A DNA stretch of 64,000 bases from Octopus vulgaris (lineage: Eukaryota). A model generated the notes under the pieces. The model saw only the letters and a program-made list of their open reading frames with translations. It did not search any database and was not told the origin of the DNA. The DNA lies in the NCBI GenBank assembly GCA_951406725.2, contig OX597815.1, positions 142,848,001-142,912,000 of the forward strand. Direction: 5' to 3'. The translations under genes were made by a program, and so were the position numbers. Shown here piece by piece: positions 8,337 through 62,245 of this stretch; the stretch's first letter is position 1; the number at the start of each line of letters is the position of its first letter.

Positions 8337-8720
8337 TGGATGGAAGCACTCCGTCGGTTCCGACGACGAGGGTTCCGGTTGATCCGATCAACGTAACAGC
8401 CTGCTCGTGAAATTAACGTGTAAGTGGCTGAGCACTCCACAGACACGTGTACCCATAACGTAGTTCTCGGGGATATTCAGCGTGACACAGAGAGTGACAA
8501 GGCCGGCCCTTTGAAATACAGGTACAACAGAAACAGGAAGTAAGAGTGAGAGAAAGTTGTGGTGAAAGAGTACAGCAGGGATCACCACCATCCCTGCCGG
8601 AGCATCGTGGAACTTTATGTGTTTTCGCTCAATAAACACTCACAACGCCCGATCTGGGAAACGAAACCGCGATCCTACGACCTCGAGGCCGCTGCCCTAA
8701 CCACTGGGCCATTGCGCCTC
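8337..8720 (-). mobile_element. SINE family C copy (tRNA-like head, long-tail variant)
   Basis: Head gaggcgcaatggcccagtggttagggcagcgg...ggtttcg (A/B boxes), shared with the copies at 29558 and 39131. Confidence 0.85.
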
Positions 8721-9227
8721 GGATTCCAATAAATGTACTATGAATAATAGTAAAGCTGAACTCATCACACTACTAATAATCAAGCAAACCTTGTAGTATA
8801 TAACTTCACTGTGTCCCATGAATAACCAATGCCTTAAGGAAAATATAGTGTATAAGTGCTCTATTATCGTTCTTCGTAAAGAACATGTTAACATTAATTC
8901 GTCCACTTCCTTTTCAAATTTCACAGGAATATTCACAGACCTATATTTAGGCATGAAGAGAACGCTAACAGTATATATGTAGGTAAATTTGTACACTCTC
9001 TCACTGATAATACCATTGCATTTAAAATTACTTTGTGTGTTGTATGTAATTCACAACTATATAAAGGTTGCGGTGACTGATGTGGCCTCTGTGTATCTGT
9101 GTATAAAATGAAATTGAATATTATGCATCAACGTGATGAATTGATTGTGAGATGCAAGCATATAAATTATTTATTATTTATTATATATCTACGCTAATAA
9201 ACTTTATAAGTTAGATCAATGCAATGG

Positions 9228-9775
9228 AATAATTCCCTAGCTTGTTTAACCTACCTTAATAATGGATATTGTTTTGGACTATATTAAAACAATCTGCTAT
9301 TTGTAAGAATATTTATGCCAACACCTTAATATGAATCGTAACTGCATGCTAGCTAATTGCATATCATGGTTAACCATATTTTGGGATTATCCTGTAATAG
9401 ATAATGTATTAGAGAATATCCAGACATTTTACCACCTATATCAATATAATTGAATAATTCCCTGCCTTATTAACGATACTTTGTTTTCACATTCGTGATG
9501 TACCATATTCTAACATTCTGCAATTTGTAAAAATAATTATTATCCATTGATGCTAGCGCCTTCAATAAGACAATTCCTATATGCTAACTATACCCAAGCT
9601 TACACGTAATTATTGAACTTACGCTAATAAGTGTTTCCCTAGATTAATGCAAATGAATAATTCTCTACCTGGGTTATCCATAATTTGATAGGTAATGCAT
9701 TAAACCATATTCAGACATTATGCTGTTTGTAAAAATACTTTTTCCCCGTTGACATACAACATTCCAGGTTATTGT
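9228..9775. repeat. Degenerate ~200-225 bp tandem repeat (about 3 units)
   Basis: aataattc(c/t)ct at ~9229, 9453, 9656, each followed by ..atatt..acat(t)ctgc..tttgtaa(a/g)aata. Confidence 0.55.
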
Positions 9776-10201: not shown

Positions 10202-10266
<65 letters not shown>

Positions 10267-10456
10267 CATTATATATAAGGGCTTAGTAAAATAAATTACT
10301 TTGCCACATACTGAACTCATTAGAAATAGCAGCTAAAGAAATTTCTTCAGCTATTTCTAATACTTAAAGAAGATCTCTCTCAGATAGTGTTTGCCTAAAC
10401 CAACTCACAAAGGTATGGGGGAAAAAAACATTAAAAAATCAAGTGCAAAGGTTATT

Positions 10457-10508
10457 TGAGAACGTACGTTTCTAGATTAGTCAATTCGACATTTCTTTCG
10501 TCAGCTCA
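10457..10508 (-). ncRNA. Type I hammerhead ribozyme motif
   Basis: Minus strand: tgag CTGACGA a aga-aat-gtc-gaatt-gac-taa-tct a GAAA cgtacg TT ctca. Confidence 0.7.
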
Positions 10509-11014
10509 GAATTCCTTGAATCGGATTTGGGAACACTGAAAGTTGGGAGCATACCCTTTCGGCTTCTTATCACCTCTAGGATTCTGCTCGAACTAAAAGT
10601 GCTATCAAATTCGAATATGCAAGCGAAGAATTTCTGCTCTCCCCTTTCCACCAGCGTGGGTTAAAATTGACAAACATCATGTATTAACGGTGAAAACCGC
10701 AGCATTTAACAGAGAGAGATGAATTATAATTTCAACAATTGAGGGTAAAATTAATTAATTATTAATCAATTTCACCAAGTATTCAGTATGTAAAGGGACC
10801 ATTTTAGGCGAATTCAAAATATTACATTATATATAAGGGCTTAGTAAAATAAATTACTTTGCCACATACTGAACTCATTAGAAATAGCAGCTAAAGAAAT
10901 TTCTTCAGCTATTTCTAATACTTAAAGAAGATCTCTCTCAGATAGTGTTTGCCTAAACCAACTCACAAAGGTATGGGGGAAAAAAACATTAAAAAATCAA
11001 GTGCAAAGGTTATT

Positions 11015-11066
11015 TGAGAACGTACGTTTCTAGATTAGTCAATTCGACATTTCTTTCGTCAGCTCA
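11015..11066 (-). ncRNA. Type I hammerhead ribozyme motif (second monomer)
   Basis: Identical to 10457-10508. Confidence 0.7.
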
Positions 11067-11281
11067 GAATTCCTTGAATCGGATTTGGGAACACTGAAAG
11101 TTGGGAGCATACCCTTTCGGCTTCTTATCACCTCTAGGATTCTGCTCGAACTAAAAGTGCTATCAAATTCGAATATGCAAGCGAAGAATTTCTGCTCTCC
11201 CCTTTCCACCAGCGTGGGTTAAAATTGACAAACATCATGTATTAACGGTGAAAACCGCAGCATTTAACAGAGAGAGATGAA

Positions 11282-11354
<73 letters not shown>

Positions 11355-21819: not shown

Positions 21820-23430
21820 TACACAGGCTGTGTGGGAAGCAGCTTGCTTCCCGATCACATGGATCCGGGATCAGTCCCACTCCGTAGTACCTTGGGGAAG
21901 TGTCTTTTACTATAGCCTCGGGCTTACCAAAGCCTTGTCAGTGTGGATTATGTAGATGTAAATAGAAGAAAGCCCGTTGTGTGTGTGTATATATATATAT
22001 ATGATTGATTGATTGATTGATTGATTCTAGTTTCAGCTTATGAGCTGTGGCCATGCTGGGGCACCGCCATTTGGTGTTGCTACTTGGTTTCACTTCATGG
22101 AGGCTTTCTAGCAACTGCTATTTGGTGCATGAGAGAGTTCGATGCAGCTGCCCTCATCTGCCCCTCCTGCCGTGAAGTTGGTTCATCTGGGACACCTGAC
22201 AGGAAGAGATCCAGCTTCATTTTAAAGACATCTGTATCCACCCCATGCAGGTCTCTCAGGTTCTTCGGGAGGATATTGAAGAGCTGTGGGCCTCGGAAGC
22301 CCAGGCTATCACAGTATCTTGTCCTACATCTTGATGGCAGGTTTGGAGTCCTAGGCACCACGCAGTGGCGCCCAGTTCTGGCATTTGCGTAACTCTCGAT
22401 GCCAAAGTTCAGGACACTTCCCTCCAGGATCTTCCAGATGTATATTATGGCATATCTTTCCCGCCTACGCTCCAGGGAATATAATTTTAATCTCTTGAGT
22501 CTTTCCCAGTAGCTTACATTCTGCATAGAGGCTATCTTCTTTGTGTAGCTTCGTTGGATCGCCTCAAGTTCTGTGATCAACTTGACACTGGATGGTGACC
22601 ATAGCTGAGAGCAATAGTCAAAGTGGCTTAGGACAAGTGTCTTCCAGAGGACCATCATGGTTTATTGTTCTCTTGTTCTAAAGGTTCTAAGAATCCATCC
22701 AGCCAGCCGTCTACATTTCATTGTCAGTTTAGCAACATGTACATGAAAGGTCGCGTCATCACTCATGTGAATACCCAGGTCACGCACTGATTGTGCCTCT
22801 GGGATTGCAATCCCTCCGGGTCCAGTGTATTCATTGGGTATTGCATTCAGTTTTGCATGCTGATAGTATAAAGCTTGAAACTTTCCAGCATTGAACTGCA
22901 TGCTATTCTTTTCAGCCCACTTGTATATTTCGTCCAGCTCACATTGCAGGTGTTTAGTGTCCTCAGGGTTCTGTATTGCCTGTGAAACTTTTGTATCATC
23001 TGCATAACTTGTGATCGTGGCTCTCTGCGTGGCTGAGGGCATGTCTGAAAGGGCCATTATGAACAGTAGTGGTCCCAGAACAGTGCCCTGCGGAACACCG
23101 CTCACTATTTGTGTGTTAATGGAGGTGGCCCCATTGGCTACTACCACCTGACTTCTATCCTTCAGAAAGTCATGAAGCCATTCTCCCAGTTTTCCAACTA
23201 TGTATATATGGGAGGTGATGGGGGTCTTTGTGTTTGTCCATCACCACTGCTTCACAAACGGTGCTTGTATGTTCAGGTCTCCTTAACTTTTCAGTTCGGT
23301 GAAAAAGGTGCTCGAATATGTACCAATCTTTAAAAACTAAGTGTCGGGTCGTCGTTTCATTCGACTAAAAAAATACTCCAAGGCGGACCCCCACCATGGT
23401 CGCAGTATAGGGAGTGAAACAAATAAAAGA
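21820..23430 (+). mobile_element. SINE family B copy split by a nested LINE
   Basis: Head ggctgtgtgg..cttgct..cagtcccact..gtgtctt at 21820-21990; tail at ~23200-23430 matches the intact copy at 24394. Confidence 0.75.
22003..23197 (-). mobile_element. 5'-truncated CR1-like LINE (RT domain, C-terminus and (AATC)n tail)
   Basis: ORFs 22662-23147 (SGVPQGTVLGPLLF, YADD, RDLGI) and 22095-22658 (HFDYCSQLWSP, SLERRRER) separated by a single in-frame stop; 3' tandem repeat tail. Confidence 0.9.
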
Positions 23431-23799
23431 ACAAAAGTGAACGTATATAACAATGTATATTGTATTGTTACAGACAAAGAAAGTCAGAGAAGTATGAAAC
23501 AGAAAGAAACCGTGATCTCGTAGCGGCTGAAGAAATATTTTAACTAGATAGATAGATATACGTAAGTACGCGATCAGGTGCCCATGATTGTATGTGTGTG
23601 TGTGTGTACGTGTTTGTGTGCGCGCGCACATACATTGTAAATTGTATAACAGTGTGTATTATACTGTAACAGAGCTAAAGAAAGTCAGAGAAATATGAAA
23701 TAGGACGAGGCCGAGATCTCGTGGCCACTGAAGAAACTTTAACTATTCGATCATACTTCATATATATATATATATATATATATTGTCAATAATAATAAA

Positions 23800-24390
23800 G
23801 GACCATTTAAATTTACCGTAAATGGTCCTTTTACATACTGAACACTGCTTGGTAAAATTATTAATTACTAATTAATTAATTAATTTTGCCCTTTATTATT
23901 AGTGACAATATAATTCTCTCCCTGATGATAAACTACAGATTCTTCTGTAGGAATTTGTTGCTCTATAACTCACGTGGGTGGACAGGGGAAGATGTGGAGC
24001 CTCATTCGTATGTTTTGAATTCGTTAGTACTGGATGTCGGAGATGGTTTGTCTGAAGTTACTCAAATCAGATGGGTATGTTCGACTTTTAGTGCTCTCAA
24101 ATTTCAATTTAATGAAATATCTGTGCTGATGACGGGAATGTTAGAATAGGGATGTATTTCTAGCTTCTCTATATCTGACTAACCCAGAAACGCGTTCACG
24201 AGTGATCTAATTTCGAGTGAACTTTCGTTATTTTTCCCTCTATGCCTGCGTGAATTGTTTTTGAGTATACATTGTCTGGGAGACTCTTCTTACAGTGGAA
24301 GAAATAGAATTTTGTGGCTGCTATTTCTAAAAATTCGGTATGTGGTAAACCAAACTTTTTTGGCTGAACCCTAATTATATAAAATTATAT
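23800..24390 (+). mobile_element. Third member of the hammerhead-bearing ~560 bp family (opposite orientation to 10266)
   Basis: aatggtccttttacatactgaa...aattaattaattttgccct and gctgctatttcta..ttcggtatgtgg are reverse complements of segments of the 10266 monomer; short inverted hairpin aaggaccattta...taaatggtcctt at the left end. Confidence 0.75.
24123..24199 (+). ncRNA. Type I hammerhead ribozyme with extended stem II
   Basis: gtg CTGATGA c ggg-aat-gttaga-ataggg..ctctat-a-tctgac-taa-ccc a GAAA cgcg TT cac; canonical core. Confidence 0.75.
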
Positions 24391-24393
24391 ATA

Positions 24394-24752
24394 GGCGCAG
24401 GAGTGGCTGTGTGGTAAGTAGCTTGCTAACCAACCACACGGTTGCGGGTTCAGTCCCACTGCGTGGCATCTTGGGCAAGTGTCTTCTGCTATAGCCCCGG
24501 GCCGACCAATGCCTTGTGAGTGGATTTGGTAGACGGAAACTGAAAGAAGCCTGTCGTATATATGTATATATATGTATATGTTTGTGTGTCTGTGTTTGTC
24601 CCCCTAGCATTGCTTGACAACCGATGCTGGTGTGTTTAGGTCCCCGTCACTTAGCGGTTCGGCAAAAAGAGACCGATAAAATGAGTACTAAAAGGTGGTG
24701 CTCCAGCATGGCCGCAGTCAAATGACTGAAACAAGTAAAAGAGAGAAAGAGT
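24394..24752 (+). mobile_element. SINE family B, near full length (tRNA head, CORE-like ttgggcaagtg, internal TA/TG microsatellite)
   Basis: A box gtggctgtgtgg, B box gggttcagtccc; tail ...ccagcatggccgcagtcaaatgactgaaacaagtaaaaga. Confidence 0.85.
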
Positions 24753-25358: not shown

Positions 25359-27814
25359 AATGTATGTATGTCTCCATGTGTGTAAGTACTCTCACGGAAA
25401 GGCACACAGAAGATAGTGTAAGAGAGAGGGGTGAGGGAGGTAGAAAGACAAGGACTTGGAGAAAGAGAGAGAGGAAGAGAGTGAGAGATAGATGGCGACT
25501 TTATCTCATAAACATTTGACATATCAGAGAAAAACACTTCAAATGGCTACTTATACAGAGTCAAGAATCTTACAAAATTATTGTCTATTTTGGTGAAATG
25601 CCACGTTCCTATTGCTAGTGGATTTGGAGCAGTTCAAAAACAGTCAGTAATCATTCTAATCCTTAGCGTTTGTTTACTTTTCTACTAAAGACAATGATAA
25701 CAGACTATCCTTGCACCAGGTTTCAAATCAAATCTGCGCAGCAACAAAACGCAAATTCTCATCACCGTTAAAATATTCATTTTTAATTAATTCGAATGAG
25801 GAGCGTGTGAAGAAGTTATATCGTTAATGACATATTTACGCTATACTGAAACGACGACATGATTGTGTGTTGATATTCAGCATCGTAGTTCGCAGACTTT
25901 GTATATACAGTACACTTATACCATTTCTGAAAACCATCGTTAATCGTACCTGAGTTTATATAATGCACTATGTATGTAAGAAAAGTCACTTGATCAAAGA
26001 CCACTTGTTCAAATAATATACAATCCCTATTTTCAAGTCATACAGAACTACATTATCCGATATATCTTCTTTTCTACAGATCTTAATGCATGATTTCAGA
26101 CAGAATTAGCTGCTATTTCTCGTAGAGTATACGTATGAAACACATTTCTATGCACGTTGCAAGTACACAGTCTGAGATTTCCAATTTAAGAGCTGGAAAC
26201 GAAGGCCCTTCACAAGAAGTTAACATTGCCAGGAGGGAGATTATCAAACAACTTACTGATTTCAAGTGCGACGTTCTTTCCTCGTAGTTTTCAATATTAA
26301 GTCCCTAAAGTCATGAGAGTATGGATGTATGGTAGAAATACACAAACCTAAGCCAGAGTGGTAGGCAAAGCATGCAGAGATAAATCATCAAATTGATGTC
26401 ACTGTCGGCAATAGTTTCCTTCGCTTTTGAACAATTCCAGTTGTCAATGTGTTATTTGTTAGTTCAAGGCCAATGTCTGTTTTACTTTAACTATTATGGC
26501 GTAAGGTTTGCGAGAGGCACCTACGGAGAAATGGGAAGAAAAACATTTTTGGTAACATCGAAGCTCACTCCAGAACGCACATTTTGAGGGCGTTGAAAGG
26601 GATATCAACAAATCCAGTACTTTCTTTATTTTAAATACCTGATTTGAGAGAAACTTACGCATGAAGAGAATATGAAAGGAATGTGAATCAGGATATGAAG
26701 TAATGAGCTGAAGTAGGGTTGTTTATGGCAAGTTGGTGATGAACCCAACCAAAACACCCTTCGTTGGAGGGTACATAGCATTTGAAATAGAGGACTCCAC
26801 CACTCCACAAATAGTACTTTGCAAATATCTTGGATCGGTAAAGGAGGAGAAATTCTATGCAGCCGCTTGGCAGGTAGACAAGCGGATTGATGGATAGATA
26901 CATAGATCGATAGATAGATAGACAGATAGAGAGAGATAGAGAGAGGGAGGGAGGGAGGCCAAGAAATGGGAGGGAATAGACATGGTGGTGATATTCATTG
27001 AAGGAATCTGGAAGACAAATATAATTTATTGTTCTGGCATATAGAATAGATAAAGATTTTCTTCAATTTGTTTTCGGTTCTGCAGCAATATAGCTAAATT
27101 AATTTGTAACATAATTTTGAGATTAAAACGATTGATATTTGCTTTGAGAAGAATTATTAAACTCACAGCTATGAAAGCAGTCATTCAGTAAACGATTAAT
27201 TCGGGCAAATAGCTTGAGAAAAGATATGTCTGTGCATTTGTGCCTGTGCATGTATGTGTGTTGACGTGTGTGAGTACGTTATACACGGAAGACTGTATAT
27301 GATCACACGAGTGTAGCATATGTAAATCTCCATAGTAAATCACTTTCGAGATGAGTTTGCTTATATATCAGCTGTCATTATTTATATAAATGGTGATAAA
27401 ATATGATTCACCATAAGAATAATGAAATTTAGCTAGGATTCTTTTTTTCTCCTTTTTTGAACTATCTCCGGAGTTACATGCTAAGATGTTCAGAAGAAAA
27501 AGAGTGTATATTTAACCCCTCTCTGAGATATTACTTCCTAAAAAACGAAACATAAATTTCTACCTAATCTCATAAATTAGTCAACAATTTATCGTTTATC
27601 TTTATCTTTCAAATGCCATGCTATTTTTTTTTTTATAGTTTATATAGAATCCTATCCTAAATAAACAGAACTACAAATGGGATGATAAATGCTCTGCAGC
27701 AACTTGGGAGATAGACAGACAGGTATACATATAGAAAGATAGATATATATATAACAGCCTGCACATGCCATAATTCTTATATTCTTGATCAACTCCTTAA
27801 TCAGGATTGATTTT

Positions 27815-43904: not shown

Positions 43905-44572
43905 AGGTATTGTTTTAGTTTTGCTGTTCCACATTTTACCAATTTTTATTTCAAGATCTTTATACTTGCTAAGTTTTTGATAGAATTTGACAGGGGCATT
44001 TATATCGATTGGGACAGTCATATCAATGAGGGATCATGGTTTTTATCTGAAGTCTTTCAATATAATGTCTGGCCTATTCGCATTCATCTTTCTGTCATTT
44101 TGAATGGTGAAGATCCAGTGGAGTGAGATGTGATGATTTTCAAGCACAGGGGGTATTTTGTGTTCCCCACCAGTTTTATCACGGGGCAGGTCCAGGTTTT
44201 TGCAAATTACCCAGTGAATATATTGTGCTGTTTTATTAAGATGTTGAGATACTCTATAGGAGCAAAAGACTGCACACGGAGACAACATGATCAATGGTTT
44301 CATTTTCTTGTTGACATACACGACATGTTGGGCTACTGCCGTTCTTTGGAATTCACTTAGATATTCCTTTGCCTCTTTTGTTACGGAATGTGATGCTTCC
44401 TTGTATTCATGCTTTAAGATATGTTTTAACATCCAGTCATCAAAGTTTTTCAGGTGACTGTCTACGCCATTTGTGGCAAACCTCATTGTTAATTCCAGTT
44501 GTAAAAGTCCACGGACTCCCTCGTTTCTTGGCAGATAAATTCGTTCTATATCAGCCTTCGGGTGGTACATTA
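43905..44572 (-). mobile_element. R4/Dong-like RLE retrotransposon C-terminal fragment
   Basis: HPKADIERIYLPRNEGVRGL; IHWVICK; NRPDIILKD; downstream IDMTVP..KLSKYKDL..KMW (restriction-like endonuclease region). Confidence 0.85.
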
Positions 44573-44616
44573 TTATTATGATTATAATTATAATTATTAT
44601 TATTATGATTATTATG

Positions 44617-44708
<92 letters not shown>

Positions 44709-44740
44709 CAGCAGCAGCAGCAGCAGTAGCAGTAGTAGTA
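44570..44740. repeat. (ATT)n(AGT)n(AGC)n trinucleotide microsatellite
   Basis: Directly visible. Confidence 0.95.
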
Positions 44741-44940
44741 CCTCTACCTTAGCGAAGGTGGAGGTATCGTTTCAGTCGTATTTGTTTGTTTGAGTGTTTG
44801 TTTCTCCGTGGACAAGATATCTCAAGAACCGCTGGATGAATTCGGATGGAACTTTCAGGGATGTTTGGTCCTGTGACTAGCACGAACCGATTATATTTTG
44901 GGATCGATCCGGTATCGGAGAAGAATTCTGGATTAGTTGT
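44739..44940 (+). mobile_element. Helentron/HINE-type non-autonomous element 5' part
   Basis: 5' hairpin tacctctacctt-agcg-aaggtggaggta, (GTTT)n tract, then atatctcaagaaccgctggatgaattcggatggaactt..gattatattttggga, an arrangement typical of HINE/DINE-like elements. Confidence 0.55.
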
Positions 44941-45729: not shown

Positions 45730-47545
45730 AGGACGTTGGTGTTGTATTCGGCTAATCGTTTAAAGAATGTCGGCGTTGTCGTCAGTGTTGTTTTTCGAAT
45801 CATTTGATTCGGAGCTGTGTTAGCAGTGTGTTCGCTCCATGGGATTTTTGTTGTATTGTATTGTTAATTTACTGAATTTTTGAACTGTTATTAACTGGAA
45901 TTGTTGAAATTTTTGTTGTTAACTGGCTTTTATTTTTCTTCCTCATTTATGGTTGAAGTTATGAATAATATCGTCATGGAAAGTAAACCAGCGGGCAGTT
46001 ACGCTGCGGTGGCTAACAAAGGCCTATCAGTAGAAGTACTGCAGGTTCAAGAAATCGAATTAAAGGAGAAGAATTTTTTAAAATATAACGGTTGGCTAAA
46101 GAAAGAGAGGAGCAACCTGAGGTTGACGCCCCCTAAAGAAATACTTGAAAAAACTAAAAAAAGGATAATGTTTTATAGAAAGTTGAATGTAGCAACGCAA
46201 AAGTTGAAGTGGGGGAGGCTGTAGAGGAATGTCTACAAAAGATAGTTGACATAACGACATATTACACGAGAGGAAAGAAATACAGGACAGTGGAAGTACG
46301 CTTCGTAAACGAAGAAGAAGCGAGGAAATACTCCACTGTGTATTTGAGATCAGCCGAGTGGGCACTGCTACCTACTTACTGAGGCAAACGTGCGACAAGA
46401 ATAAGAATAGGTAGAGTGCCCCCAGAAATTGATGAGGCGTTGCTGGTGGAACCCATCCTCTATAACACAGAGGAAGGCACTCAGGTATTGAAGATATCAA
46501 GAACGACGGAAAGGAACTGCTGGGGATATGGACTGGCGGTGTCGGTCCATATCAGCCTGCCGGACCTCAACAAAATTGTGGAAGAGCTGGTGCTACCAGA
46601 TGAGACAAGGTTGAGAATCGTGGTGCAAGGGAAACCTCCGGTATGTTATTTATGTGGAGTAAGGGGACACATGAAAGCAAAGTGTCCCCCAGAAACACGA
46701 ACAGGAGGAGGCGGAGAAGGAGCGTCAGGAAGAAGAGGATGCAACAGCGGTTGACGAGGAAATGGTTGGAAAATATACAATGGCAGAAAGAAAGAGGAGT
46801 ATTGGAGAATCTCCACCTAAAAGCCCGAAGAAGAAAAGAAAGGCAGAGAAGAACAAGAATGGGAAAAGAAGGAATGAGGAGACAAGTGAGGAACGAACAC
46901 AAAGACCGTTGCCTTCACCTAGTAAGGAGGGGGAAGGACGGAAGAAGAAGAGACATGAAAGTGAGAAGGAAGGACAAACAGAGACGGGAATACCAGCAAC
47001 AGAGGAAGAGAGTGGTGAGGAAAAGCAAAGAGAGCCACAGAAGAGCAAATACGAAAGTACTATTATAAGTTACAAAAATGTGTAGAGATAGGAAAGAAAA
47101 TATCGAAAATGAAACATGTAATAAGGGTTAAAAGTGGCTGACAGTGAGCACAATCGAGATGAGAAAGCGGCGCTGTTGGAGGAAGAAAGAGCAAGAAGGT
47201 TGCAGGAAATATTTGGTGATAGAATAGTGATAACAAGAAATCGATTTCGTTACGATGAATTGCCACCATGGATAATATTTGACGAAACATATGGTGTGAC
47301 TTTGTGTAGCTTTTTAAACAAAAGGAAATCTAACAAGATACAAGACTGATAAGTAGGCACTTTATTCAAAAACAGTAAAATGAAACTATTTGCTTATGGG
47401 GGGGGGGCAAGTAAGTCATTCCATCTTCATTTTCATTTATATTCATAATTCATTCGTTATATGTTTTTATGTACGCCAATGTATTGTTTTGTCTGTCTTT
47501 TGTGCTGTCCCTTCTCTATGAGGCCTTGTGCCTAATTAAAGAAAT
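45730..47545 (+). mobile_element. Gag/ORF1-only unit 1 (subfamily A), frameshifted
   Basis: TTG-rich leader; ATG 45949; SYAAVA; knuckle CYLCGVRGHMKAKC at 46644-46685; K/E-rich tail; stop ~47349; 3' UTR ending aaagaaat. Confidence 0.8.
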
Positions 47546-48640
47546 CAGGACATTGGTTTTGTTGTTAGTGTCGTATCGAGTCATCTGTTGTTGAAGAAGT
47601 ATGATATTTTGTTGTATTCTTTGAACACCTTGGTTTTTACTGTCTTGAGAGTTGAGAATTGTTGTGAAGTACGTGAATTTATTGTTGAACTTTGTTGAAT
47701 CATTGTTATCGCGCGTGTAGTTTGCTGCTATTTTTGGTGATCTTAAAGTAGCCGTGTTATGGCGAGTTACGCAAAGGCCGCTGCGGCAAAGGCGACACCG
47801 CAAATGGAAGTGTCAGCAATAACGGTTAATATGGAGGAGGTGAGGAAGAATGAGAAACTGATGAAAAAGGAAGGAGACACCATCAAGTTAGTGTCTCCGC
47901 AAAAGACAATGAAGGAGAAGGAGGAGAAGACGGTGATGTGCCGCACGCTGGCGGTCGCCATCAATAAAATTGACAAACTGCGGATGAGGATATTGAGGAG
48001 TGTTTGGCCGACATAGTAGAAGAAACAGAGTTCATTGGCAGAAGTAGAAAATTCGGTACTTTGGAGGTAAGGTTTGCTACCAAGTAAGAAGCGGCTTCGC
48101 ATGCCACCAACATCTTGAAGACGAACCAAGGTATGTTGTTTCCCTCTCACAAGGGAAGTAGAAGTGTGAGAGTGAGAATCCCGAGAGTGCCACCAGAAAT
48201 CAAGACCAAGTGGTTGGTTGCAGCAGTTTTGGCGGCAACCGAAGACGGCCCTGAACTGGGTCAAGTAGGAGTGACAAACAAAAACAGCTAGTGGGGATTC
48301 GGCGTCAAAGACATTGCGCAAATCCCCTACCAGATTGAGATTGAAGGAGGAAGGCTAGGTGTAGTAGTAGATGGAAGACGGCCCAATTGCTACATTTGTG
48401 GAGCACAGGGCTATATGAAGGCTCAATGCCCCTTGGCGGAATTTATGCTATATGAGAAAGAGGAGGAACAAGAGTAAGAAAAGAAAAAAGATAGACGTGA
48501 TAGTGAGCGAGTCAGCAACATAAAGAAAAGGAATGAAGTGAAAGAGGGGAGTCATGATTTTATCAGCCCCAAAAGGAAGAAGGCAAAAGCAAGAAAAAGT
48601 CTATGGAAACTAAGAAGGAGACACAGAAAGGTGAGGAGGA
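47546..48640 (+). mobile_element. Unit 2 (subfamily B), 3'-truncated
   Basis: ATG 47759 MASYAKAAAA; VPPEIKTKWLVAAV; knuckle CYICGAQGYMKAQC at 48388-48429. Confidence 0.78.
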
Positions 48641-49904
48641 ATTTAAATCCTAAGGAAGTCATAGAAAAAACAGAGAGAAGTACCATGATATTTAGAAAGC
48701 TAAATATTGCAACAAAAAGTGAAAATAGCAGCAGTGGAGGCGGTTGAGGAGTGTTTGAGAGGGATTAAAGATTCAACGACGTACTACACCAGAGGAAATA
48801 AGTACGGCACAGTGGAGGTGCACTTCGCGGGTAGGGAAGAAGCGAGAAAGTACTCCATTTTGCCTTTGAGATCGGTGAAGTGAGCGCTACTACCGACTTA
48901 CTGTGGCAAACGTGCGGCCAGTGTAAGAATAGGTAGAGTGCCTCCAGAAATTGATGAGGCGCAGCTGATGGCAGCCATCCTCTATAATACAGAGGAGGAC
49001 ACCCAAATATTGAAAATGAGGATTTGGACTGGAGGTATTAGTTCATATAAGCTTGCCAGTCCTCCACAAGATTGCGGAAGAACTGATACTGCCAGTCGAA
49101 ACAAAGTTGAGAATAGTGGTGGAAGGAAGACCACCTGTATGCTTTCTGTGTGGAGTAAGGGGACACATGAAAGCTAAGTGCCCCCAGAAACACGAAGATA
49201 AAGAGACAGAGAAGGAATATCAGGAAGAAGAGCGTGCAACCGTTGAGGAGGAACAAATGGAAGAACAGTACACTGTGATACAAAGGAGGAAAAGTAATAC
49301 AGACTCACCACCAAAAAGTCCTAGGAAGAAAAGAAAGGCAAGTGGAGAGGAGACGCAGAGTTAAAAAGAAGAGAATACGAATGTGATGAGAAAAAAATGA
49401 AAGGTCAACAAAAGTGAGGAACGAACGCAGAGACCATCAACTAGCAAGAAGTATATAGTACAGAAGACAAAGGAAAATGAAAGAGAGATGATAGCAACAC
49501 AGAATGAGATAGAAATGCTAGCAACAGAGGAGGGGATTGGTGAGGAGAGAAGAAAAAGAGTAAAATGGAACTGCCGGATCTTTACTAAAAGATGGACAGA
49601 ATTTCAACTCAACTAAATAATTTAAAACTTCGTATACTGGTAGAATGTGTCAAAAGAAAATATTAATTTCAATTAGTTTTTTTGAGAAAATTGCATTTTG
49701 TAACTTTTACGTAGTTTAATTCTTCGAATTTTAACCAATGAAATCCGGAACTACCTGCTTATGGGGGGGGTAAGCTATTCCATCCTCATTTTTTATTATA
49801 TCCATAATTCATTCGATACGTGTTTTTATGTACCCCATTGTACTGTTTTGACTGTTTCTGTGTTGTCCCTACTTTATAGAAACCTTGTACCTAATAAAAG
49901 AAAT
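48641..49904 (+). mobile_element. Unit 3 (subfamily A), 5'-truncated
   Basis: PKEVIEKTERSTMIFRKLNIAT; knuckle CFLCGVRGHMKAKC at 49140-49181; unrelated AT-rich insert ~49562-49748; tail ending aaagaaat. Confidence 0.78.
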
Positions 49905-51628
49905 CAGGACGGTTGTGTTGTCCTTAATGTTGTGCCGAGTCATTTTACTCCCTGTTTTAGTTGATGTGTATTCGCTCCACGTGAGTCTGTTAATGTTACA
50001 TTGTTATTGTTAAAGTGATATATTACTGAATTGTTGCTCGAATTTTAATTTTTCTTCCCCATTTATGGGTGAAGTTGTAGATAATGTTATCGAAAGAAAA
50101 CAAGTACTAGCAGGCAGTCACGGTGCAGTAACTGGCAAGAGTTTAACAGCATATATACTACAAGTTAGAGAAATTGAACTAAACGAAACTAATTTCAAAA
50201 GGTATAACGAATTTGTGAGAAAGGAAGGAGACAGACTGAGGCTGACTCCGCCTAAAGAAGTCGTAGAAAATAAACAGAGAAAAAACAAACAATAATATAT
50301 AGAACGTTGTCCCTTACAACAATAAAAGTGGAAATAGCAGGAATGGAGGCGGTTGCAGAATGCTTAAAAGAAGTTTAAGAGCTAACAACATTTTACACCA
50401 GAGAAAAGTAATATAGCACAGTGGAGGTACGCTTCGTGAGTGAGGAAGAAACGATAAAACACTCCACTGTGCCTTTGAGATCAACTGAGGGGCTGCTACT
50501 ACCAATCTACTGTGACAAACGTGCGGCCAGAGTAAGGATTGTAGAGTGCCCCCAGAAATTACGTGGCGTGGCCATTCTTTATAACACAGAGAACTACGGA
50601 GGTGAACTGAGTGGGTATGTACCGGAGGTATCGGTTCATATAAGCTTATAAGACCTCCGCAAAATTGCAGAAGAATTGATACTACCGGACGAGACGAGGT
50701 TGAGAATTGTGGTGGGAGGAAGACCTCCTGTATGCTATCTGTAAGCCATGTGTCCCCAGAAACACGAAGAGGAGGAGATAGAGAAGGGACATCAAGAAGA
50801 ATAGGGGTTTAACCGTAGAGGAGGAAAAATGGAAGAGCAGTATACAGTGGTAAAGAGGAAAGAAATAACACAAACTCACCACCAAAGAGTCTTAGGAAGA
50901 AAAGAAAGGCAAGTGGAGAGGAGATGCAGAGTGGAAAACATGAAAAAACGAACGAGCAGAAAAAAAAAATGAAAGGTCAAGCAAGCAGGAGAGAGTACAG
51001 AAGAAAAAAAAAGGAAAATGAAAGAGAGAATGAGGCATACAGAGATAGGAATACCAGTAACAGAAGAAGAGATTGGTGAAAGAAAACAAAGAGTGACATC
51101 AAAAGGGAAAAATCTAAGACATATGATATAATACAGAAAAAGTGAAGAGATAGAAAAAAAGATTGCAAAGATAAAGAACGTAATTAGAATTAAATTGGCG
51201 CCCAAGGAGTACAATGAAGGTATGAAAGCTATCCTGCTGGAAAGAGAAAGATTAGAAAGAGGAGTTGTTTGGGGAAAGAATAGATGTGACAATATACAGT
51301 TTCGTTACGATGAGTTGCCGCCGGTGGTGGCATTCGAAAATATATTGGAATATATGGTGTAATTAGTGACTTTGCTTTCTTAGAAAAAAAAGGAAAACCA
51401 ACAAATGCAAGACAGGATATTGGACTGTTAAGTAAAACTTAATTTAAAAACAGTAAAGTGAAACTACCTGCTTATGGGGGGGGGGGGGGGGGCAGGTAAG
51501 TTATTCCATCCTCATTTTTCATTGTACCCATATTTCATTCGATATGTTTTTATGCACCCCATTGTATTGTTTTGTCTGTTTTTTTGTTGTCCCATCTTTA
51601 TCGAGGCCTTGCACCTAATAAAAGAAAT
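49905..51628 (+). mobile_element. Unit 4 (subfamily A)
   Basis: ATG 50065; homologous to unit 1 throughout; 21 nt deletion inside the knuckle (~50742) creates TAA. Confidence 0.8.
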
Positions 51629-51931
51629 CAGGATATTGCTGTCGTCTCAGAGATGAAACTGGATAGGAATGGAATGCTAGGCTTAGTGACTTTTGAGGAA
51701 ATGTTGAAAGAACACGGGATAGATATTTTGTAGGGAACAGGATATAAAAGGAATTAAAGGTATAGATGAAAGCTGCTCAGAGGTGGGACCGAGTGGCTTC
51801 ATTACATTTTTCATTTTCATCTTGTCATTACATGTTTTTTATACGTTCTCTTATTTTGTCCCTGCTTTGTGTCTCCACATGTGATGTATTGTCCCCTCTG
51901 TGTTCGCCACTTGGTGGGTAACAGAAAGATT
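51629..51931 (+). mobile_element. Unit 5 remnant (short leader fused to a 3' end)
   Basis: caggatattgctgtcg start; ends ttgtcccctctgtgtt..tgggtaacagaaagatt. Confidence 0.55.
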
Positions 51932-53580
51932 AGGGCGTTGGTGTTGCAGACTAACAACTTGTTTGTTTGGGTTCTGAGGTTCGTCATTCTTGACCACGCT
52001 TTTGGATTGTTGTTGCATGCTGAAGGCTTTCTCTTCGAGACTGTCCGTTGTTGAAGAATTTGTTGTGTATCACTGTTGAAGATTATCGTTGAGCGACTCG
52101 CGCGTGAGTTTTTTGCTGTTTTCTTCTCATTGTGAGGATGAAAAGTTCGTTTTTCAATATGGAAAACGGTGATTTCTACGCAAAAATCGCTGCAGTAGGA
52201 GCAGCTCTGTCGTTGGACCTAAAACAGATAATAGTGAATAAGGAGGAAATATGAAGGAGTGAACAATATATACGAAAGGAGAGAGACACAATAAAGCTAG
52301 TACCTCCAGCAGAAACGGCCGAGGATAAGAGTGATAGGACGGTGGTGTACCGCACGCAAGCGGTCGCCACCAATAAAACTGAGAATCTATGGAAGGGTGA
52401 CGTGGAGGCACGTTTGGAATCCCTTTTGAAAACGGCAACTTACGTTAGCCGATGAAAAAATATGATACGGTGGTAATGAGGTTTGCGAAAAAGAAGAGGT
52501 TGCCTCACATTCCATACTATTTTATGCAGTGAAAAGATGACGCTATTGCCCACATACATGGGGAAGACAAAGTGTACGCATTCGCATTGGAAGGGTGCCA
52601 CCAGAAATAAAGCCAGAGTGGTTGGTAGCAGCTGTTATGGCTACCACCGAGGAGTATTTCGAAATAGTGTCAGTGGGAAAAGCGATCAAGTTGAACTGGT
52701 GGAGGCACGGGGTCGAGATGTGTCTTTTAGACACTTTCAAGGACATCGAAAGTGACCCCTACCAGATAGAGATTCCGGGATTGTTGAGGGACGAAGACCA
52801 AATTGCTATGAGTGTGGAATAAGAAACCATATGAAGACGCAGTGCCCCAAGTACAAGCATCCTCAGAATGAGAAAGCTGTGGAGAGTGACCTAGAAGCAG
52901 TTGAGACCAAAGTACCAAGTGACACAATAACGGACGGAGACAGCAAACGTGGTATGGAGTGCTCCATGGATACGGAAGAGGTGGAGTCAAAGAAAGGCAG
53001 AACGAAAGCGACAAGTAAGGGGAGTGACGGGTTTGTCATCCCCAAAAAGAGGAAAAAGGTGACAACAAAGGTAAACTCTGAAAGACCAGCAGCCGAACCG
53101 GATAAGACGCTCTAAGAAGGTAAGGAACTGCCTATATTTAAAAACATGCAGACGATTGAAACAGGACAAAAGGAGTGGGAATCGGCAGAAGGGACTGAAA
53201 CAGCAGGTTTTGAAAAATAAGGCATTTGTAGTTTACTACGGTAAGAATGTGGACGTGGAAAAGAGGATTTGCAAGTGGAAGGGTTTAATAAGGAGGAAAC
53301 TACCCATGGAGGATTTCACGGATGGATAAAAGTGTGTATTATTGAACGAAGACAGATACAACACGTTTATAAAAACATGCAAAGTATATAATTTCAATTG
53401 GCGGACCGATGGGGTTTGATACCTTCCCACCGATTATTCAACATAAACTCTTGAAGATTTTAAAATATTGTAAAATATGAATATTTAAAAATGTAGATGT
53501 GAACCTTTAAAAGGAAAAAAAAAACTGTTCAGAAAATAACGTCTAAATGCAACCACTCGACTTCGGGAGTCGAGTGGGCT
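51932..53580 (+). mobile_element. Unit 6 (subfamily B)
   Basis: ATG 52159 MENGDFYAKIAA; VPPEIKPEWLVAAV; knuckle CYECGIRNHMKTQC at 52804-52845; terminal hairpin 53553-53577. Confidence 0.8.
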
Positions 53581-60184: not shown

Positions 60185-61401
60185 TTACATACGTACATAT
60201 ACACACGCATATACATACGCATGCGTATATATATATATATATACATATATATGTACATATATATGTATATATATATATATATATGTACATATACATACAT
60301 ATCTACACACATATGTATGTATGTACAGGCACAGACACATACACATAGAACGAGACGTGTATATATACATATATACACACACATACGCGTGCCCATATAC
60401 CTGTTTGTATACATGCATTTATATTACAATTGTTATCTTCCCCCTCTGCAATGTATATCACAATTCAGAGACTACCGAATGTAATGCTTTATTTTCATTT
60501 AGCTAGTCTTATTAAGCTGCGGTTTCGAAACCCGTCGAAGTTGACTTTGCCTTCTATATTACTAAGGTCAATAAAATATGTACCGGCGAATTATACTGTA
60601 AACAATCCCCAGTACCCACAGTGGAAATACGTGGTTTTATATTAAGGCAAGGAATGACTTTCGTTTCTTACTTTAATTTATGTTTTACACATTATTTGAT
60701 GTCTTGGCCTTTAGTGGCACATGGCCATTTAAGTGACACAGAATATACTTTCGCTACTGTCTGTTTCTTCAACAGTTACATACATAAGACCCTTACAATT
60801 TCGCGTCCTTAATCGTTGCGACTGTTTGCTTACGGTGGCGCCAGTATTAAAAAGCAACTTGGAATAGCTAATGAACATACACGACAAAGACGAAAGCAAA
60901 CACGACAAAATAAAATAATTATGATAATTATACATATACAACAAAAGGACCGTACGGCTGCCAGACAAACGAATATTGCTAGCGCAGAAGAAAATAAAAT
61001 GTCCTATAAGACTAGAGGTGAGAGGAGGGCAGATAGCAAGTCAGAACGAAAGAAGTAAATAAACCAAGTCGATCAGTCTTCTTTGCCCTCCTACACCTTT
61101 TTCTAAGATATCGTAGTATGTATAAACATATAAATACATATAGATGCATGTACGTGAATCTACATATACGTATATAATAATATAAATAGTCTGTATGTAT
61201 ATATATACATGCATATGTGGGTACAGGACATCAAAAAACGTTGAACACAATGAGAAACGAAAACATAAAAACAAAAACATAGAAACGAACTTTTTTTTCA
61301 AACAACGAGAAAACAGAGTACAAGACATTCAACACGAGGAATATTCCCCTTCTTCAGTTGTCCCTGTTTCGTCTACTCCGCGTTTCGAATATATATATAA
61401 C

Positions 61402-62245
61402 AATTTTAGAAATAGCAGCCAAAGGACTATTATTTCCTTTTTCTACAAAAAATGTCTTCGATTAATTATGGACGTACGTTTCTGGATTAGAATCATAAGA
61501 TTCATTTCCTTCATCGATATAATATTCCGATAAATAAATCTAGAAATGCTAGGAAAACTTACCCCTTATATTTCTGACCAAGCGTCATCAGAACATATAA
61601 AAGCTAATAAGCATATCCACATTTATATAGACGAGTGAATTCGTATTTCCCTCCAAATTTTTCTATCATGTGAGTTACAAAATAGTACTGCCGAAAAAAG
61701 ATTCGTAGTTTTGTCGTAGGGGAGTGAAATAATCATTACAAATATAGGGTGAAAGATAATTAATTTAATAAAATCAACAAATTTCACCTAGTAGTTTTCG
61801 GTATGGAAAAGGACCATATTTGGTGAAAACTTATACAAAAAGTTTTTTCATATATAATTATAACAATAAGGGTTTTGCAACAAGTTGCTTGACCACATAC
61901 CGAAAATTTTAGAAATAGCAGCCAAAGGACTACTATTTCCTTTTTCTACAAAAATATGTCTCCACAGACAACAGTATTTGTAACTCACACATGGCAAAAA
62001 AAAAAGAAGTAAATAATGAAATCAAAAGGTCTTCGATTAATTATGGACGTACGTTTGTGGATTAGAATCATAAGATTCATCTCCTTCATCGACATAATAT
62101 CTCGATAAATAAATCTAGAAATGCTAAGAAAACTTACCCCTTATATTTCTGACTAAAATTTCTAAATTTTTGGTATGTGGTCAAGTAACTTGTTGCAAAA
62201 GCCTTATTGTTATAATTATATATAAAAAAAACTTTTTGTATAAGT
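61402..62245 (-). mobile_element. Hammerhead-bearing tandem monomers (~575 bp spacing) with an inverted ~85 bp terminal copy
   Basis: 61402-61578 is repeated at 61905-62153; 61829-61916 is inverted at 62158-62245; hammerheads at 61466-61522 and 62041-62097. Confidence 0.75.

Follow-up and report, generated by a model that had tools for sequence, protein, structure and literature searches.

A candidate hammerhead retrozyme with Penelope-like insertion ends in the genome of Octopus vulgaris

Animal non-LTR retrozymes are described in PMC7229834 and 10.64898/2026.07.22.740005 as non-coding tandem repeats with a G+C content below 50%, one type I hammerhead per unit and strong self-pairing, all features that they share with the insertion reported here (copy A). 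According to PMC7229834, axolotl retrozymes cleave weakly as monomers and better as dimers, and among the predicted Xenopus retrozyme dimers reported in 10.64898/2026.07.22.740005 just one of nine was cleaved in vitro. In both sources the mobilisation of animal retrozymes by Penelope-like elements (PLEs), with an RNA circle as template, is still presented as a hypothesis. The marks of PLEs given in PMC8557442 are partial tandems, inverted 5' pieces, tails and a bias towards (TA)n. For a PLE of Anolis, PMC11167929 demonstrates two internal start sites and reports that hammerhead mutants were without effect on insertion in vitro.

Here we describe copy A together with two older relatives, copies B and C, in a window of 64,000 nucleotides of Octopus vulgaris contig OX597815.1 (positions 142,848,001 to 142,912,000, forward strand). 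It is well supported that the element is real, structured, hammerhead-bearing and mobile. We consider it fairly probable that copy A is a recent copy of a non-LTR retrozyme of octopods, and that RNA of this retrozyme is cut as a double hammerhead, circularised and recopied by a Penelope-like element.

A tandem insertion between (TA)n tracts

When the window is compared with itself, positions 10266-10726 and 10824-11284 are identical at 461 of 461 bases, with 0 differences and an offset of 558. The insertion as a whole (10266-11284, minus strand, 34% G+C) contains 1.83 units of a 558-nt non-coding element, head-to-tail, between a left (TA)n target at 10232-10265 and a right one at 11285-11354. 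In the RNA sense it consists of a 5' partial unit of 461 nt (10824-11284), a 97-nt segment that occurs once (10727-10823) and a 3' repeat (10266-10726), and its 3' end is at 10266. The perfect direct repeat in (TA)n of the original prediction is thereby recovered, with its period of 558 and its start at 10266. Its tandem monomers become 1.83 units, as 10727-10823 occurs once, and its end moves from 11285 to 11284, the terminal base of the element. Tandem Repeats Finder does not list the 558 repeat, as its period limit is 500. The 97-nt segment is counted in the unit because it pairs with 10306-10316, and it sits between two AU-rich sites at which copies of the family meet (TA)n.

The unit is non-coding, as had been predicted: its longest stop-to-stop frame is 62 aa, and ARAGORN found no tRNA gene. 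A search for a target-site duplication of more than 4 bp returned (TA)n on both sides of copy A, the target being itself a repeat. By eye, the ends differ from TG...CA, and LTR ends, PBS and PPT are absent. We rejected an LTR/TRIM reading (461-97-461) on the grounds of the type I topology of the hammerhead and of the 97-nt middle, which belongs to the folded unit.

The 0 differences in 461 bases bound the divergence between the two repeats at 0.65%. They are compatible with a young copy A: on the scale that PMC13282606 gives for O. vulgaris (0.09 per 25 My), the sequence would place it under about 0.9 My, provided that neither conversion nor misassembly has occurred.

The window is rich in microsatellites and holds several other repeats. 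A decayed trimer of about 215 bp adjoins copy A at 9200-9760; its six frames are closed by stops, and it has no match to the retrozyme profile. Two SINE-like heads recur, one at 8701, 29561 and 39397 and the other at 21826, 24405, 37600 and 62496. We take them to be octopus SINE heads, and ARAGORN found no tRNA in them. A broken LINE-type reverse transcriptase (RT) frame lies at 22095-23240 (minus strand; Pfam RVT_1, E 2e-12) and has relatives with an APE-type endonuclease domain. Among the 120 relatives listed, its species-named matches are two from Argonauta hians (56-57% identity), and closer matches carry no species name. Taken with the SINE heads, these matches would suggest an octopod host. 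Three to four decayed head-to-tail copies of a purine-rich element occupy 46190-52900, with spacings of about 2.5 and 1.6 kb and 60-84% identity. This element has a zinc-knuckle frame and no RT match, and it is possibly a non-autonomous tandem of L1/Tx1 type. Finally, a frame at 44043-44771 (minus strand) looks by eye like the end of an RTE-type element and has no Pfam match.

The hammerhead motif and its palindromic stem III

Each unit carries a type I hammerhead motif on the minus strand, in agreement with the original prediction, one downstream at 10448-10517 and one upstream at 11006-11075. The downstream motif contains the core CUGACGA (10504-10498), GAAA (10472-10469) and U17 (10461), with a predicted cut at 10461/10460. 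Its stem I pairs 10508-10505 with 10460-10457 (UGAG/CUCA, 4 bp). Stem II is built from AGA/UCU, an AAU/UAA internal loop and GUC/GAC, with an A·A mismatch (10497/10473, A10.1·A11.1) at its base. Stem II is followed by GAAA, C-GUAC-G, U16.1 and U17, and the stem III palindrome is ACGUACGU at 10469-10462. All of these parts recur at +558, with the upstream core at 11062-11056, GAAA at 11030-11027 and the predicted cut at 11019/11018. The predicted cuts are 558 nt apart and delimit a predicted monomer of 558 nt (10461-11018, minus strand). No second ribozyme was found on the plus strand of the unit, and CUGANGA...GAAA is present on the minus strand only. The earlier description of the hammerhead as minimal does not hold, since copy A has a full stem II, A·A at its base and U17.

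After the motif had been seen, we drew up a descriptor for it as a type I hammerhead, comprising a 4-bp stem I, the core, a 3-bp stem II that may have one mismatch at its base, and stem III. It matches three places in the window, namely the two hammerheads of copy A and 24126. Of 300 dinucleotide shuffles of the window, 11 contained any such site (mean 0.04) and none contained one whose palindrome reached at least 6 nt; of 20000 shuffles of the unit, 15 contained a site. Searches with Rfam gave 0 matches at the gathering score and, at E up to 10, eight matches of which none was to a hammerhead family. One of them, a mir-31 match, is the hairpin 10314-10365; it is far below the gathering score and was set aside as irrelevant. 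A published rnabob descriptor might likewise reject the motif of copy A, given the A·A mismatch. The local fold of the hammerhead has -9.6 kcal/mol, and the short motif alone folds no better than shuffles (z 0.3-0.7). Both this and the silence of Rfam would suit a satellite or SINE-like repeat in which a hammerhead-like motif arose by chance. The low descriptor rate per unit, the covarying stems and a palindrome that varies in length argue against such a repeat, and we regard it as extremely unlikely. Rather, we see a natural hammerhead variant missed by Rfam, with a 10.1/11.1 mismatch, U17 and a stem III palindrome of 6-10 nt.

Positions are given in the conventional hammerhead numbering, and U17 weakens hammerhead cleavage. 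With A10.1·A11.1 and U17 as weakening features, the modelled copy A ribozyme may cleave poorly. In the predicted linear fold, the 5' strand of stem I has an alternative upstream partner (10448-10590, minus strand), which is a possible on/off switch.

Stem III is self-complementary in all versions seen, with 8 nt in copies A and C, 6 nt in copy B and 10 nt in three contigs of one public run (X4), where the listed place was read as the first aligned base. That stem III stays palindromic despite these changes of length points to dimeric cleavage, as far as sequence can tell. In the unconstrained fold of the 1019-nt RNA (the 1.83-mer), the two palindromes pair with each other. The dimeric ribozyme lies 5.4 kcal/mol above this free fold and two monomeric ones lie 9.2 kcal/mol above it. 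In the free fold, U17 is paired with A14 and stem I is sequestered, so cleavage is expected to be slow. Taken together, covariation, palindromy across lengths and the pairing of the palindromes in the free fold support, at the level of models, the predicted role of stem III in a dimer. As for the release of a 558-nt RNA, we infer it only.

Relatives, fold and variation of the family

Copies B and C were recovered by BLAST and nhmmer within the window. Copy B (23779-24395, plus strand) is an older relative, 64% identical to copy A, and consists of one full unit and an inverted end piece (23779-23813) that adjoins (TA)n; a SINE-like head follows it directly at about 24395. Its hammerhead (24122-24200, plus strand) has the intact core CUGAUGA, a C·A at the base of stem II, a long stem II and a palindrome of 6 nt. 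Copy C (61389-62156, minus strand), also older and 52% identical to copy A, is a partial tandem with a period of 575. On its 5' side lies an inverted piece (62157-62245, plus strand), the reverse complement of 61829-61916. The hammerheads of copy C (61467-61521 and 62042-62096, minus strand) have the altered core UCGAUGA in place of CUGAUGA and a GUC site, and one repeat additionally lacks G12. Either copy C was made from a template whose ribozyme was already dead, or UCGAUGA is a variant of the core. The repeats of copy C differ from each other at 9 of 183 bases (8/133 and 1/50), which suggests that the family has long been active. A weak profile match to the hammerhead region at 26517-26584 (minus strand, E 0.09) is possibly a very old fragment.

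The circular fold of the minus-strand 558-nt monomer has -143.8 kcal/mol (z -6.2), with 0 of 40 shuffles equally stable, and that of the plus strand has z -4.4. Copy B reaches z -8.0, with 0 of 100 shuffles equally stable. Each of copies A, B and C gives a long branched-rod fold, in which the hammerhead junction occupies one end and AU-rich hairpins the opposite end. Of the 173 pairs predicted in copy A, 16 are changed on both sides in copy B and 27 in copy C (P 0.02 each). Broken pairs number 37 in copy B against a null mean of 55 (P 0.0004) and 61 in copy C against 77 (P 0.002). On a noisy alignment, the three independent folds have only 17 pairs in common. The stems of the hammerhead were compared in four rows from three insertions, with the structure taken from copy A; 39 of 40 cells are paired, and four of the ten pairs, in stems I and II, are altered on both sides in a compensatory manner. 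A11.1 is present in 4/4 of these rows, facing A or C, and the AAU/UAA internal loop of stem II in 3/4. The covariation with the two older copies lends support to the retrozyme reading of the original prediction.

Parts of the unit are also present in 20 of the 24 public sequence runs listed (10 studies, four coded organisms), and 11 of the runs listed have half of its words or more. Four runs, one per organism (X4, X5, X9 and X17), were aligned to the unit. None of the runs is on record as RNA; X9 and X17 are presumed to be, and their contigs were used for sequence variants and joints only. Read depths in the four runs are not copy numbers. Contigs fitting the unit number 57 to 1575 per run, with identities from below 90% to above 99%, and cover 30 of 30 bins. 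The exact 21-nt pattern gave 0 matches in metagenome and viral contigs, and the hammerhead pattern gave 0 in metagenomes. A looser pattern gave 32 matches in viral contigs, which we rejected as none had both stem I and stem II.

These runs bear on whether the element is real but its doubling at copy A arose through an error in assembly, or through a local duplication at a later time. Such an event would fit the lack of any difference in 461 nt and the position between microsatellites. Against it, the head-to-tail joint from 10823 to 10266 is present in X9, X5 and X4, three of the four independent runs aligned. Copy C is likewise a partial tandem, and with its 8/133 and 1/50 differences it is no collapsed duplicate; moreover, both ends of copy A lie on sites that other copies use. 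We therefore consider a spurious doubling improbable.

At 10473, 56-86% of the depth across the four runs supports the base with which stem II closes by an A-U pair, so that copy A carries the minority, apparently older, A·A mismatch. The two repeats of copy A share minority alleles: of six places checked, five are minority in 4/4 runs, as expected from one template copied twice. Among the variants listed, the only change in the core is at the variable position 7 (10500). Of 40 variants listed (a further 47 are outside the pair test), 20 affect unpaired bases, 15 leave a pair intact or restore it, and 5 disrupt a minus-strand pair, where 12.9 would be expected (P 0.001). In this set of 40, two-sided changes do not exceed the chance level (P 0.15). 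The test is also passed by the plus-strand fold, with 9 pair-breaking variants against 18.0 (P 0.0009). On the plus strand, T>C exceeds A>G in the four runs (14:2, 21:4, 9:3 and 13:3; binomial P 0.0008, 0.0002, 0.08 and 0.005, for runs that are not independent), an excess we ascribe to the tolerance of G·U on the minus strand. ADAR editing was rejected as its source, being unneeded when G·U tolerance explains it; the listed sites are too few for a neighbour test. Because the variant test passes on both strands, we assign the strand from the ribozyme, from the better of the two folds and from the excess of T>C.

Insertion ends, template and comparison with known systems

Seven RNA-sense 3' ends could be mapped (in copy A coordinates). 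They are at 10266 for copy A, about 10819-10266 for copy B, 10725 for the inverted piece of copy B, about 10810 for the inverted piece of copy C (with no TA following), 10725 and 10732 for two X17 contigs joined to (AT)n, and about 10317, ambiguously, left of copy C. Six of the seven fall close to one or other of two AU-rich sites, separated by about 100 nt, and none is at the cut site. The 5' end of copy A (10726) coincides with the second of these sites. The two are the only TATA-containing sites in the unit, and TATA microhomology or target pairing alone may fix them. The Penelope/non-LTR retrozyme picture of the original prediction thus stands for the shapes of the insertions, with inverted ends in copies B and C, partial tandems in copies A and C and (TA)n targets, and fails for the element ends, which are the AU-rich sites and not the cut site. 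Copies A, B and C all cross the cut site intact. Priming at the end sites on a linear cut monomer could yield no more than about 195 or 295 nt, which argues for a circle or an uncut multimer as the template.

We propose the following scheme for the circular template. Minus-strand transcription would run through both hammerheads, and the two palindromes would pair as stem III of a dimeric ribozyme that releases 558 nt. Cleavage of the dimer would probably be slow or aided by protein, owing to A10.1·A11.1 and U17. A host ligase of RtcB type would close the circle, by analogy with PMC7229834. A Penelope-like protein with RT and GIY-YIG would then nick (TA)n, and the cDNA would start from either of the AU-rich hairpins, at about 10266 and 10725, which lie at the end of the rod remote from the ribozyme. 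Copying of more than one round would yield identical partial tandems, and priming from both target strands would yield inverted ends.

It is worth considering that the element may instead be a non-autonomous derivative of Penelope, copied from uncut multimeric RNA, with a hammerhead that is weak, protein-dependent or idle and no need of a free circle. The A·A mismatch, U17, the 4-bp stem I and its sequestration in the free fold would all agree with this. A dimer left uncut would equally explain the read-through of the cut site, and PMC11167929 describes internal RT initiation on unprocessed RNA for the Anolis element. In addition, the altered core in both of its repeats did not prevent the insertion of copy C, which suggests that cleavage may be dispensable. 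On the other hand, the core, the stems and the palindromy are kept over 36-48% divergence, the 5' and 3' parts of the unit pair into one closed rod, and copy B is almost exactly one round of the unit in length. We regard copying from an uncut multimer as rather unlikely.

A different possibility is that the copies are 5'-truncated pseudo-LTR pieces of an autonomous PLE and that there is no free-standing small element. The extra base before stem II and the palindromic stem III resemble the PLE hammerheads described in PMC4209133, the ends are of PLE type, and 22% of the X17 contigs run into unlike sequence. However, units are joined directly without an ORF, at periods of 558 and 575 and with no frame above 62 aa, and the same closed unit is kept in three diverged lineages. 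We consider pseudo-LTR pieces very improbable. At copy A there is no ORF with RT and GIY-YIG between pseudo-LTRs, and no GIY-YIG and no second RT match were found among the 126 frames of the window for an autonomous partner. As candidates, PMC13282606 describes 31 recently active Penelope-like families in O. vulgaris. According to PMC8557442, Naiads lack hammerheads and are mere remnants in cephalopods, which would favour a partner of the Neptune, Nematis or Penelope/Poseidon type.

Returning to the circular template, the reading can be extended, tentatively and with more doubt than confidence, to octopus genomes at large. They may contain an abundant, old family of viroid-like circular RNAs of 560-585 nt, whose hammerhead is selected for cutting only as a dimer. 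A Penelope-like RT would enter the circle at two hairpins of fixed position, on the side away from the ribozyme, and roll round it, and the insertions would be a direct record of rolling-circle reverse transcription. Octopus shows very high A-to-I editing. If the circular RNA exists, edited variants might be written back into DNA.

Among the openly accessible papers searched, we found no report of hammerhead repeats in cephalopods, and nothing useful on 10.1/11.1 mismatches or SINE motifs. The word 'ribozyme' is absent from the text of the O. vulgaris repeat paper PMC13282606 and from its one supplement. Octopus repeat libraries may already contain the family without a name, and cephalopod examples may be contained in the supplements of PMC7229834 and 10.64898/2026.07.22.740005. 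The class itself is already known, and this family would extend retrozymes to cephalopods. As its insertions are short, datable and dispersed, with ends that can be mapped, a genome-wide tally of start sites, rounds and inverted ends would test both PLE mobilisation and the circular template.

Among known systems, the plant-type LTR retrozyme (type III hammerhead in LTRs, PBS, PPT, 4-bp TSD) is unlike copy A, which has type I topology and a 97-nt middle folded into the unit. Viroid double hammerheads are closer, with a dimeric hammerhead formed through a palindromic stem III and a rod-like RNA; in contrast to viroids, the unit has no second-polarity ribozyme and hence gives no sign of RNA-to-RNA replication. 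Satellite 2 of newts and salamanders, as described in PMC7229834, also combines a dimeric hammerhead through a palindromic stem III with a rod-like RNA.

PLEs (PMC4209133, PMC8557442, PMC11167929) have several traits in common with this family: insertions with partial tandems and inverted 5' pieces, targets that are AT-rich or (TA)n, a pair of internal start sites and an extra base before stem II. Unlike them, the family lacks an ORF and its hammerhead is not minimal. In the minimal PLE hammerhead, stem III is reduced to its core, with G10.1-C11.1 and a single extra base before stem II, whereas in copy A stem III has 2 bp and a tetraloop, and both sides of stem II have an opposed base. The end sites are about 100 nt apart here and 30-40 nt in PLEs. 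Here they are AU-rich and match the target, whereas the start site of the Anolis element is AC-rich and lacks homology to the DNA that is cut.

Compared with animal retrozymes, the unit of 558-585 nt is longer than the 150-450 bp of most animal repeats and is within the 51-972 bp reported in 10.64898/2026.07.22.740005. The axolotl motifs in PMC7229834 offer precedents for a minimal stem III with a palindromic tetraloop (HHR_Amex1) and, in the U·U mismatch at the base of helix II of HHR_Amex2, for the stem II mismatch here. This family differs in its dispersed insertions of 1-2 units in (TA)n with inverted ends, in the purine or C·A mismatch at 10.1/11.1, in U17, in an extended stem II with the AAU/UAA loop and in its cephalopod host, and its circle is predicted. 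By the features compared, the best reading of the sequence is an animal non-LTR retrozyme that would insert like a PLE.
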